From a candidate division WOR-3 bacterium (lineage in GTDB: Bacteria; Hydrothermota; Hydrothermia; JBDRYB01): 24,796 nucleotides of DNA. Of this stretch, positions 6,001 to 9,000 are shown piece after piece. The position numbers were made by a program. Location of the stretch: contig JBMFOM010000016.1 in assembly GCA_049969615.1 (NCBI GenBank), positions 1-24,796 on the forward strand, in the 5' to 3' direction. Position 1 is the first letter of the stretch; every line of letters starts with the position of its first letter.

Positions 6001-9000
6001 GCTATCTCGTCCTCCATTTGGATAAAGACGCCCCCTACCTTCGGGAGCACCCTTGACATTTCCTCGGCTATCTCGGATGAAGGGGTTATGGGATAACCGC
6101 CATAGAAGCGCACGCCAACGGCGATGGCTCCCTCAACGCAAGCGTGATTTCCTTCCAAAAGTTTCATATCAGACTCCTGGTTCCGGGACTATGTCCATGT
6201 CCCAGAAAGCCTCCAGGGCATTCTCAAGCCTGTATTTCTTTACCATGAGGGAAAGAATGCCCTTTGAGTAGCTTATCATGTCTATGTTGACGCCATGTTG
6301 GGCTAAGAGGTCAAAGATCTCAGAAATGACCACGGATCTATCCGCAGAGGGATTCAGGTGAAAATTCAGCAGGACAACATCCTCGTATATTGAATAGAAC
6401 TCACAGGCCGCTCCAGCCAGGACCTCCTCGCAGACATCGCCGACAATGTCCTTTTGGCTTCTGAGAACAGCAAAACCTATGTCGCCGCGGCCCTTTGTTG
6501 ATGTGTCATATGATATGCCGAGTATGTCAATCCCTTTCTCGGCGAGCGCGGAACACAGTTCGCCAGCGACACCAGGTTTGTCCCTTATGCTTCGGAGGAC
6601 TACACGGACAACCTCCCTGTTTAGGTTAAATTCCTGAATATCCGAGCTCCGCAAGGCCTGAATATTATAACCCACTTCCTGCGCAGGATCAAACATTTTT
6701 GGAACCCCTGAAAAATCCGGGTTATCAATCATCAACCAAACCCGAAATCTATCCGGAATCCTGATCCGAGAACAAATGATAAACCCCGGCTGGGTTGTTG
6801 CTCTCAGTTTACGGGCGAGGACCGACTATTATCTTGAAAACATCACCTCCATAACATCCCCATCCTGAACCATGTAGTCCTTGCCCTCCTTTCTGGCCGC
6901 GCCCGATTTTTTCGCGGCTTCCCAGCCGCCCGCTGAGACCACTGCTTCCCATCCTGCCACCATTGCCCTTATGAACCCACTTTCCATGTCCGTGTGGATT
7001 CTACCAGCGGCCTCCCGAGCGCTCGCTCCCCGCCTCAGGCTCCAGGCCTTGACCTCCCTCGGGCCAGGGGTGAAAAAGTGGATGAGTCCAGCTGTCCTGT
7101 AGAGCTTTGAAAACAATTCCGGGACCGGATCCCTTAGCTCCAGCTCGGCCGCCATTTTCTCCTTTTCGTTCTCGGGCAAACATGATAGCTCAAGCGCGAG
7201 CTGGAAATCACCCACCACCCAATCAATTGCCAGTTGGGTCTTGGGTTCTTTTTGAATTGCAACTACAGCTGGTTTCAGGCTGAGAAACCCGTATTCCGAC
7301 ACGAGCTTGAGCTCCGTATCGGAAAGGTCCAAGGAGAACAACGGTTTTCCTCTGCCGAGGGTCTCCGAGAACCGCTCAAGGAGCACAAGCTTCTTTGGGT
7401 CATCGTGTCCGCCGGAGACGGTTTTTCTCAGGTTGGGGATGAGCCTTTCAACTGCTTCCGCTTCCGAAACGATCATCCTGGCGTAGATGTCCTCAAAGTC
7501 GGCTTCGTCCCTTGCGACGATTATGAACCCCGAGTAAGCCCCCATAGCGTTGAATACTTCCCCGGCCCTCCTGTCAGACCACATGGGTCCCATGCCAAGG
7601 AACATGTGAAATTCCGGACGATCGGGGGTAATTTTTTCGGGGTTTATGACCCTGGCGAGCTCGCAAAGCCTTATATCCGGGAAATCCGCGGTGGCAACGG
7701 CAGACACATAATCCCTGGGGGCCTGTCCAGGTTCACGACCGGTTATCAACTGGAAGACTGCCTCAGGCAGACCATGTTTTGATCCAAATATAGCGACACG
7801 CACACGGATATTTTAGCTCACTTGCTAAGGACGATCAAGTATTGGGGGGAGATGAGCTCTAACACTTATGAGCATAGGAGCCAGGATAAAGCCCGCGAGA
7901 AAAGCCGGAGGAAAGGAACACAGCTACATTCAGCTGATAGAGGAAACCATGAGAAATACCGGTTTGTCATTAGTCCATGTCCTGGAGCCTCATCATAGAA
8001 AAAATAACCCTGAGGAAATGCCCAGTGATGGGATTTTTCAGGGGTTTCAAAAGCATATCCAGGGAAAAGATCCCTAGCCCTTCCCCAGAGCCCTTTTCAC
8101 GCTCTTGGCGTCAACAGGCTTCAGGGTGGTTGCCCTTCTGAGCCTCCGCTTGGTCTTCTGGCTCTTGTTGAACTTCAGGTGGGAGGTCTTCGCCCTGTTT
8201 CTCTTAACCTTGCCCGTGCCTGTTAGCGTGAACCTTTTGGCCGCGCCTTTCTTGGTCTTTATCTTTGGCATATGTTTCTCTCTTTACATTTATTCGGCAA
8301 AAACGCCGATCAACTCTGCCTCGCCCACGCGGGTCATCCTGACCCTTGCCAACGAACCCGGTGTCAGGCCCCTTACCCCCAGTCGCAGGTAATTACCCGA
8401 AATAGCGAAGGTAACCCCGGCCTTTCTTTTTTCGCCCACCACAACCAATTCAGCTCCCACAAAACGTTTGGCAAATTTTAACCTGTTTTCCTGGTCGGTT
8501 TCAAGAAGAGATCTGACCCTTTTCTTCACCAGGCTAGCATCTAGTTCCCCGAGCTCCCACGCCCTCGTGCCTGGCCTTCGGGAATAGCTGAATATGTGCG
8601 CGTACGCGAAGGGAAAATCCCTGAGGAACGAGAGGGTATCCTGAAAATCGGGGTCGGCCTCTGCCGGAAACCCTGCTATGATATCCGTGCCTATTGCCAG
8701 GCTGGGCATGGCCGAGAGCGCCCGGAAGGCCTTGTCCTCGTATTCTCTGAGCGTGTAGGGCCTGCCCATTTCCGATAGCACCCTGTCCGATCCGGATTGC
8801 AGGGGGAGGTGCAGGTGATCCGCGACTCGCCAGCCCGCGCCGGACATGATCTCAATGAGTTCAGGGTTCAGATATTGCGGCTCAATTGACGAGAGCCTGA
8901 AACGAACCCCGGATAGCCTCTCGATCAGTTGCCCCAAAAGCCAGGCGAGGTTTCGGCTCCCTTCACGCCAAGCCCCTGTTTGGGTTCCGGTTATGACGAT

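Follow-up and report, generated by a model that had tools for sequence, protein, structure and literature searches.

Graded breakup of some core operons in Hydrothermia, with rpmI detached from both infC and rplT

The window, which is the whole 24,796-nucleotide stretch of DNA that was analysed, carries the ribosomal protein gene rpmI detached from both infC and rplT. It belongs to a Hydrothermia bacterium of candidate division WOR-3, whose genome (G000) is 98% complete in 203 contigs with an N50 of 16 kb. The locus raises the question of whether the core operons of this bacterium have come apart, how far, and by what route.

The rpmI locus and other separated genes

The features of the window that bear on this question are listed below.

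3154..3423, minus strand: gatC, closing a mixed ACT/oxidoreductase/panD/glmU-like/thioredoxin run; gatA and gatB do not adjoin it
6664..6690, minus strand: promoter cassette before an ACT-domain gene
6829..7803, minus strand: YchF-like gene (PF06071), the downstream neighbour of rpmI only in G000
7810..7836, minus strand: degenerate copy of the promoter cassette, with its -35, conserved spacer, and -10, before the YchF-like gene, from a PWM scan
7945..8046, plus strand: partial copy of a MITE-like repeat of about 187 bp, directly downstream of rpmI
8074..8271, minus strand: rpmI, ribosomal protein L35 (PF01632), the end of a cmk-ispH-rpsA-mtaB-rpmI run
8290..9477, minus strand: mtaB-like radical-SAM methylthiotransferase gene (PF04055 and PF00919), with an 18-bp gap to rpmI
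9545..9732, minus strand: full copy of the MITE-like repeat, separating rpsA from the mtaB-like gene
9741..13659, minus strand: cmk(-acyltransferase)-ispH-rpsA, a retained conserved cluster (cmk-rpsA was kept in the textbook-pair test)
17634..17814, minus strand: MITE-like repeat downstream of V-ATPase C
17903..18922, minus strand: V-ATPase subunit C (PF01992), alone, 9 bp downstream of nikR
18932..19363, minus strand: nikR (PF08753 and PF01402), the unrelated upstream neighbour of V-ATPase C
19438..19656: MITE-like repeat (19438-19623, minus) abutting a promoter cassette (19630-19656, plus)

The new upstream neighbour of rpmI is the mtaB-like gene, so named for its PF04055 and PF00919 domain pair. 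The order cmk-ispH-rpsA-mtaB-rpmI is common to G048, a congener with an independent assembly and about 78% protein identity to G000. In G048 the mtaB-like gene overlaps rpmI, the rpsA/mtaB-like junction exists without the repeat, and the block after rpmI differs. Retention of cmk-ispH-rpsA shows that not all clusters were lost. Rfam searches of the window and three loci returned tRNAs only. The genome as a whole is rich in operons: 1231 of 1636 neighbours are co-directional, the median gap is 16 bp, and the commonest gap is -4. Operons in G000 appear rebuilt, not absent.

The initial annotation had listed a series of separated genes, and we found each separation again. infC is on C20, rpmI on C16 (8074-8271), and rplT on C15. 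Likewise, rplU (C87) is apart from rpmA (C26), and glyQ (C170) from glyS (C73). On C4, rpsG is followed by rpsP and is apart from fusA, and an opposite-strand gene lies upstream of dnaN (C1), apart from dnaA. The ATP synthase genes occupy six loci: I-K-E on C6, C on C16, F on C21, A on C70, B on C81, and D on C13. This is the only ATP synthase, with no F-type pair found in G000 (two PF00006 matches at E<=1e-30). Subunits A, B, C, D, E, F, I, and K were found with PF00006, PF01992, PF01813, PF01991, PF01990, and PF00137, and I through its similarity to the G006 protein; all eight frames are open. A tblastn search of G000 with the G-like protein of G006 gave no match for subunit G. As also described, the S10-spc, alpha, and rplK-rpoBC clusters are whole as far as the contigs run, and long junctions are seldom kept, with 22 of 100 gaps over 120 bp conserved against the congener. 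The dcw cluster had been called whole as well; its mraZ-to-murC and ftsA-ftsZ run is intact, but ddl lies elsewhere.

Such scatter could be an assembly or binning artefact of a 203-contig MAG. The contigs are short (N50 16 kb), dnaA, fusA, rplT, and glyQ lie near contig ends, and so do 39 of 213 MITE matches. However, every named pair has at least one flank filled by another gene, and G048 has the same contexts for rpmI, atpA, atpD, and rplT-pheS-pheT. The rpmI|rplT, atpB|D, sucC|D, and rplU|rpmA splits also appear in class genomes of three and four contigs, and other-class MAGs that are just as fragmented keep rpmI-rplT together in 111 of 111 cases. The artefact reading is thus largely refuted and, in our judgement, extremely improbable; the named splits are real.

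Extent of the loss and its distribution among WOR-3 genomes

The initial annotation had 80 of 88 canonical pairs apart and announced that universal operons were dissolved. As a rate, this number did not hold up. We assembled a rule-based textbook set from 24 E. coli regions with textbook clusters, which gave 128 pairs with both orthologues in G000; 62 were apart, 60 kept, and 6 ambiguous. This set leaves out carA, carB, kdsD, ihfA, ihfB, ppiD, and trmH, which had no true or distinct orthologue, as well as dnaA-dnaN, rpsU-dnaG, and ribE-nusB, whose scores did not pass the filter; S10-spc, alpha, and rplK-rpoBC are not part of it. The rate is also contradicted by 30 phylum-ancestral pairs, defined as tight pairs adjacent in both of two other-class genomes (G149 and G024) with ribosomal superclusters excluded, among which 20 were kept, 8 apart, and 2 ambiguous. 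The annotation had itself cautioned that its pairs were picked after breaks had been seen and that it had no matched control, and this caution proved decisive.

With ambiguous cases set aside, G000 thus keeps 60 of 122 textbook pairs and 20 of 28 phylum-ancestral pairs, and the uncounted ribosomal superclusters are kept too. It has not lost most of its ancestral operons in the manner of Aquifex, H. pylori, or Synechocystis. It has broken near-invariant core pairs, namely rpmI|rplT, infC|rpmI, and sucC|sucD, and has its V-ATPase at six loci. The single breaks that were claimed hold, as do the V-ATPase in six pieces and the rpmI|rplT split throughout the class, but the headline of dissolved universal operons was overstated, since about half of the textbook pairs are kept.

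We compared these losses with those of the two other-class genomes. G000 lost 8 phylum-ancestral pairs, G149 lost 9 of those shared by G024 and G000, and G024 lost 5 of those shared by G149 and G000; discordant pairs in this test were 8 versus 9 (G149) and 10 versus 5 (G024). For textbook pairs, the raw discordant counts were 7 versus 11 against G149 and 6 versus 11 against G024 (p 0.48 and 0.33). Curation by eye changed these to about 8 versus 2-3 (G149) and 6 versus 4 (G024), together about 14 versus 6-7, which is not significant by hand calculation. The artefacts removed were mrdA/rodA taken as ftsI/ftsW, a missing rimM, and hydrogenase-like nuo paralogues. Retention per probe was 37-38% into G000 and 47-53% between G149 and G024, which are themselves slightly closer to each other. 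Per-probe counts replaced synteny counts between two partial samples, which were dropped for their bias toward "kept". Genes came from a home-made caller that missed some genes in these comparisons, and sampling covered 1.2 of 2.3 Mb for G149, 0.98 of 2.0 Mb for G024, and 0.4 Mb each for G006 and G048. G000 is possibly worse than the two other-class genomes, at most moderately so, and the mild excess is not significant. Because the controls are half sampled and G024 is partly shuffled, the true excess may be understated. GC skew was uninformative, being clean in G024, patchy in G149, and uneven in G006.

The separation of rpmI from rplT is a class trait, as the initial annotation had proposed from fewer genomes. 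The two genes are apart in 36 of 36 Hydrothermia with both genes and adjacent in all 111 other-class genomes, where paired searches left 4 of 151 genomes without a match, "apart" means different contigs, and contig ends were not checked genome by genome. In a sample of rpmI loci drawn from many phyla, rplT comes next in 52 of 55 (52 of 54 informative, one being at a contig edge); the two loci without it are one Desulfobacteraceae contig and one Ca. Hydrothermus record. Since rplT-pheS is still joined in 32 of 33 class genomes, the rpmI|rplT split is most simply explained by a single cut in an ancestor and not by 36 separate ones. sucC and sucD are likewise apart in 14 of 14 Hydrothermia, and in the other classes (n=36) they are joined in 33, apart in 2, and mixed in 1. 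All pairs tested phylum-wide were picked with the G000 state already known.

Other cuts are restricted to parts of the class. infC-rpmI is joined in 13 of 32 class genomes (families f2, f4, f5, and f10) and apart in 19 (f1, f3, and f6-f9). glyQ-glyS is joined in G006, G020, and G063, and dnaA-dnaN in G006. The rplU|rpmA, glyQ|glyS, and dnaA|dnaN splits also occur in other-class G024, and rpsG|fusA in other-class G149. Several named splits are thus not class traits or are present outside the class as well.

The V-ATPase forms a graded series. Its genes lie in one piece in G063 and in two in G006; G078 has four pieces, and G000 and G048 have six. Among the matches listed, which cover 14 of 21 class genomes and 23 of 70 others, atpA-atpB is joined in 7 and apart in 7 of the Hydrothermia, and in the other classes it is joined in 21, apart in 1, and at a contig end in 1. 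Outside the class, atpB|D is apart in 18 of 63 informative genomes, and G149 has its V-ATPase in at least two places. A tree of rplT plus pheS (420 columns, 16 class genomes plus E. coli) recovered the families but gave deep nodes a support of 25-61%, so we do not read the series as a phylogenetic ladder of losses.

Operons can also die by replacement, when transferred copies settle elsewhere and the operon copies are lost, a route documented in passages of PMC1480536. As a reverse control, we scored rplT-pheS outside the class and found it apart in 28 of 56 informative genomes; in 16 of these 28, the pheS frames are about 510 aa and not about 330 aa, which suggests replacement there. However, the V-ATPase A and B proteins of G000 match those of G006 and G024 similarly (621/551 and 601/551 bits), as vertical descent expects, and the same passages of PMC1480536 call replacement uncommon. 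For the G000 splits, replacement seems quite improbable.

Repeats, mismatch repair, and the fate of detached genes

Two repeated elements mark G000. The first, of about 187 bp, has 213 matches, 211 of them outside genes. It has the properties of a MITE: it is short and non-coding, with terminal inverted repeats and target duplication (at least 4 bp in 25 of 66 full copies versus 2.6 by chance). The second is a 48-bit promoter cassette with 184 copies at a score of at least 20, versus none in 1 Mb of random control; atpB and rplT of G000 carry it. The cassette replaces DNA upstream of a resident TATAAT already present in the G048 orthologues.

Recombination between such copies could swap upstream neighbours while each gene keeps its promoter. 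Consistent with this, the junctions broken against G048 comprise 32 of 33 with a cassette and 30 of 36 with a MITE, versus 86 of 264 with neither. Among operon heads, the upstream neighbour is kept in 2 of 18 with a cassette versus 40 of 107 without (p=0.03), and there is no downstream effect. However, these associations concern recent junctions only. G048 shows every named split that was checked, the cassette pattern was found in none of 45 other class genomes (two congeners among them), and the MITE was absent from G048, G006, G020, and G073, while G152 has two short matches. Repeated intergenic regions number 170 per Mb in G000 but 5 in G048 and 0 in G006. A test of target duplications against breakpoints was null (4 of 6 junctions broken where the duplication is intact and 6 of 8 where it is not, from the 14 of 66 copies that could be scored), and the sole polarised G000-G048 junction is broken in G048, not in G000. 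The named splits are older than the MITE and the cassette, which nonetheless mark recent breakpoints. As makers of the named splits they are ruled out by the presence of these splits in repeat-free relatives, and the wider proposal that they caused the breakup is unlikely.

Mismatch repair restrains recombination in bacteria. Loss of MutS1/MutL could therefore be the main driver, with unchecked recombination between diverged repeats scrambling the genome far faster than in relatives. MutL_C gave no match in 4 of 21 class genomes (G000, G048, G073, and G108) and a weak one in G083, versus its presence in 70 of 70 other-class genomes. MutS_V is strong in G073, G108, and G006 and gives only a weak match in G000 and G048, which by its score and length is probably MutS2-like. 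The two congeners keep just 185 of 321 junctions at about 78% identity, in blocks that average 2.6 orthologues; this is the only congener pair compared, it comes from one class, and the loss is inflated by contig ends. However, families that keep MutL are also cut at rpmI|rplT, sucC|sucD, and atpB|D, and the MutL-bearing families f4 and f7 cut atpA|B, as f3 and f7 cut infC|rpmI. We regard repair loss as a doubtful main driver.

What became of the detached genes can be read from their new surroundings. Among the downstream members of 60 broken textbook pairs, 32 are operon heads, 23 have a place within mixed operons, and 5 border contig ends; TA-led genes make up 10 of these 60, versus 0 of 59 members of kept pairs. 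An excess of TATAAT-like boxes 5-8 nt before the start affects 12% of genes in G000, 11% in G048, 5.5% in G149, 3.7% in G024, and 2% in G006. In G048, atpB has such a box before its start, and rplT has a TATAAT about 20 nt upstream. Novel same-strand junctions relative to G048 have a gap of 20 bp or less in 34 of 67 cases. We infer that detached genes gain a predicted leaderless -10 promoter or join predicted operons of unrelated genes. Passages of PMC1480536 describe operon death by rearrangement and operon birth from unrelated neighbours through deletion, and a passage of PMC3160421 reports fewer TA-led genes where operon-distal genes rise. The rplT leader in G000 is about 20 nt, too short for a known L20 leader. 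In the window and the three loci Rfam found no L20 leader, even at the intact G024 operon, so leader loss could not be tied to the rpmI|rplT split.

The subunits might instead have been parted for independent regulation, as in E. coli cases given in parts of PMC1480536, and several detached genes do have their own predicted promoter. However, the affected genes encode complexes of fixed ratio, and the detached genes have unrelated new neighbours that are not the same in the two congeners, as seen downstream of atpB and rpmI. Such adaptive uncoupling is very improbable.

We consider it probable that the splits reflect ordinary operon death by rearrangement, accumulated stepwise along the WOR-3/Hydrothermia tree, inherited, and piled deepest in the G000 genus. 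The class-wide cuts are thrS-infC-rpmI | rplT-pheS and sucC | sucD, and both are most simply placed in the class ancestor. Within the class, the atpB|D, atpA|B, infC|rpmI, C|F, and glyQ|glyS cuts are limited to subsets of families. Such later cuts gave V-ATPases in one, two, four, and six pieces. Other classes have cut other joints, such as rplT-pheS. An orphan gene may be tolerated if it comes to lie after a promoter, in many cases a minimal TATAAT placed 6-7 nt ahead of the start codon, as for leaderless genes. Alternatively, it may land downstream of an unrelated gene, after which spacer deletion would weld a mixed operon; mtaB-rpmI, nikR-atpC, and rpsG-rpsP are proposed examples. Stronger selection on co-regulation is presumably why the long ribosomal, rpoBC, dcw, and most nuo blocks remain. 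Loss of MutS1/MutL in the genus and the young repeats of the G000 species probably raise the recent rate but would not have made the named cuts.

A more speculative extension, which we put forward only tentatively, is that the genus branch is on a one-way ratchet toward a genome of portable genes. Leaderless -10 promoters would make single genes self-sufficient, and loss of MutS1/MutL would free recombination between diverged repeats. In the G000 species the cassette, by adding one standard promoter to resident -10 boxes, would then offer about 190 crossover sites of the same polarity, with both genes staying expressed after an exchange. The relatives would form a time series (V-ATPase in 1, 2, 4, and 6 pieces) of a rotary machine giving up operon-based stoichiometry, in a class that seemingly inserts membrane proteins without SRP.

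The SRP is a subject of its own. Neither Ffh nor FtsY was found in any of the 46 class genomes searched, and a literature search for SRP absence turned up no WOR-3 paper. This apparent class-wide absence may be a more surprising lead than the operon breakup.

Significance and comparison with known systems

The breakup of some core operons is real, inherited, and graded, and it is strongest in the G000 genus; breakup of this kind has precedents in Aquificae and others. Core operons have not dissolved wholesale, and the excess over relatives, a modest one, is not shown to be large. What keeps the operons of multi-subunit machines together is an open question, for which this class offers a V-ATPase in one, two, four, and six pieces. 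A cultured member, strain sy37, has been placed in Hydrothermia (PMC12542636); together with the graded relatives, it makes expression ratios and assembly directly comparable. As markers of the class, the rpmI|rplT and sucC|sucD cuts are clean. Function prediction from neighbourhood is unsafe in the G000 genus, since unrelated genes often meet at tight junctions. No report of operon breakup in WOR-3 was found in the openly accessible literature searched.

The repeats have a counterpart in the Correia elements of Neisseria, which are promoter-bearing MITEs. G000 similarly has a short non-coding repeat that bears terminal inverted repeats and target duplications, and a repeated promoter before unrelated genes. 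No autonomous element was identified for the G000 repeats, though no search aimed at a cognate transposase was made.

The closest precedent for the scattered ATP synthase is found in Aquificae. The part of PMC4154653 that deals with them gives the cut junctions as IG|IB, IB|IE, IA|IG, 0C|0B, and I|0A, so that there, as in G000, the sole ATP synthase is cut at most junctions. Passages of PMC4154653 and PMC3879981 also place Aquifex ribosomal genes in small scattered clusters, and PMC3160421 reports in part on its TA-led genes. On the same partial accounts, the Aquificae enzyme is F-type whereas that of G000 is V-type, and Aquifex also splits the large ribosomal operons, which G000 keeps. Unlike that precedent, the Hydrothermia relatives offer a graded series from a whole operon to six pieces.

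H. pylori and Synechocystis no longer have the majority of the ancestral operons, according to passages of PMC1480536. G000 resembles this type, as described there, in its apparent replacement of old operons by predicted operons of unrelated genes and in its repeat-rich genome. However, it keeps about half of the textbook pairs and 20 of 28 phylum-ancestral pairs, and the named cuts came before its abundant repeats.

In Bacillus subtilis and E. coli, infC, rpmI, and rplT form an operon with L20 autoregulation, as stated in part of PMC1865079. The same three genes are present in Hydrothermia, and their order is kept in the other WOR-3 classes. In contrast to the B. subtilis and E. coli operon, Hydrothermia have cut between rpmI and rplT throughout the class, and again before rpmI in six families.

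Genes and repeats of the window

Several genes of the window stand away from the genes with which they are commonly grouped. The GlmU-like gene, whose product combines a nucleotidyltransferase domain with one hexapeptide repeat, is distant from glmS.

Genes in the window
3154-3423, minus strand: gatC, usual partners not alongside
3737-4708, minus strand: GlmU-like gene, only 323 aa
22194-22790, plus strand: riboflavin synthase, usual partners not alongside
23170-24474, plus strand: PD-(D/E)XK nuclease with DUF2357, presumably McrC-like, adjoining an ORF truncated by the contig end

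Two repeats of the genome (G000) also occur here. One is a MITE-like repeat of about 187 bp. Two short matches to it in the congener G152 might point to an autonomous element. The other is a promoter cassette (-35, conserved spacer, -10), which is species-specific and overlies a resident TATAAT already present in the orthologues of a second congener, G048. It lies at 101 of the 643 predicted operon heads of G000, and it precedes rplT, atpB and tRNA-like sequences.

Repeat copies in the window
7945-8046, 9545-9732, 14334-14519, 15472-15658, 17634-17814, 19438-19623: MITE-like repeat, six copies
6664-6690, 7810-7836, 19630-19656: promoter cassette, with about 180 further sites in G000

Related splits and the control genomes

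The nuo operon of G000 is also split in two, nuoA-F and nuoG-N (contigs C26 and C8). Outside the class, G001 (family f11) keeps rpmI-rplT together; it shares with Hydrothermia the lack of an SRP match and the separation of atpA from atpB, atpB from atpD and sucC from sucD. A Desulfobacteraceae MAG contig (locus L192) has no rplT within 1.5 kb downstream of its rpmI, a possible independent split of this pair. In 16 other-class genomes, the pheS open frames are about 505 to 600 aa long versus the usual length of about 330 aa (for example, G024:C2:466528-467340), and in none of the 16 is the long frame beside rplT. The long pheS is possibly an archaeal-type replacement.

G024 and G149 served as the other-class control genomes. 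The GC skew of G024 C1 is clean and two-part, and that of G149:C1:1-1200000 changes sign many times. This pattern points to many inversions or scaffolding joins, which makes G149 less reliable as a control.

Proteins and SRP components not found

A whole-genome tblastn of G000, with proteins common to G024 and G149 as queries, gave no match for rnhB, mutM, dut, rlmN, rsmE, rsmG, maf, radC or mutL. Class-wide spread was examined for mutL only; the result for the other eight applies to G000.

Ffh/FtsY was not found in 46 same-class genomes, including G000. The best PF00448 match there had an E value of 9.8e-7, and these weak matches are P-loop cross-hits. Among other-class genomes, 42 of 49 had a PF00448 match at E<=1e-30; Ffh/FtsY was not found in families f11, f23, f24 and f26, and a few single matches may be FlhF-like. 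The small SRP RNA was looked for and not found in G000, G048, G149 and the same-class genome G006; it is present in G024. In G000, rpsG adjoins rpsP, at the place where E. coli has ffh.
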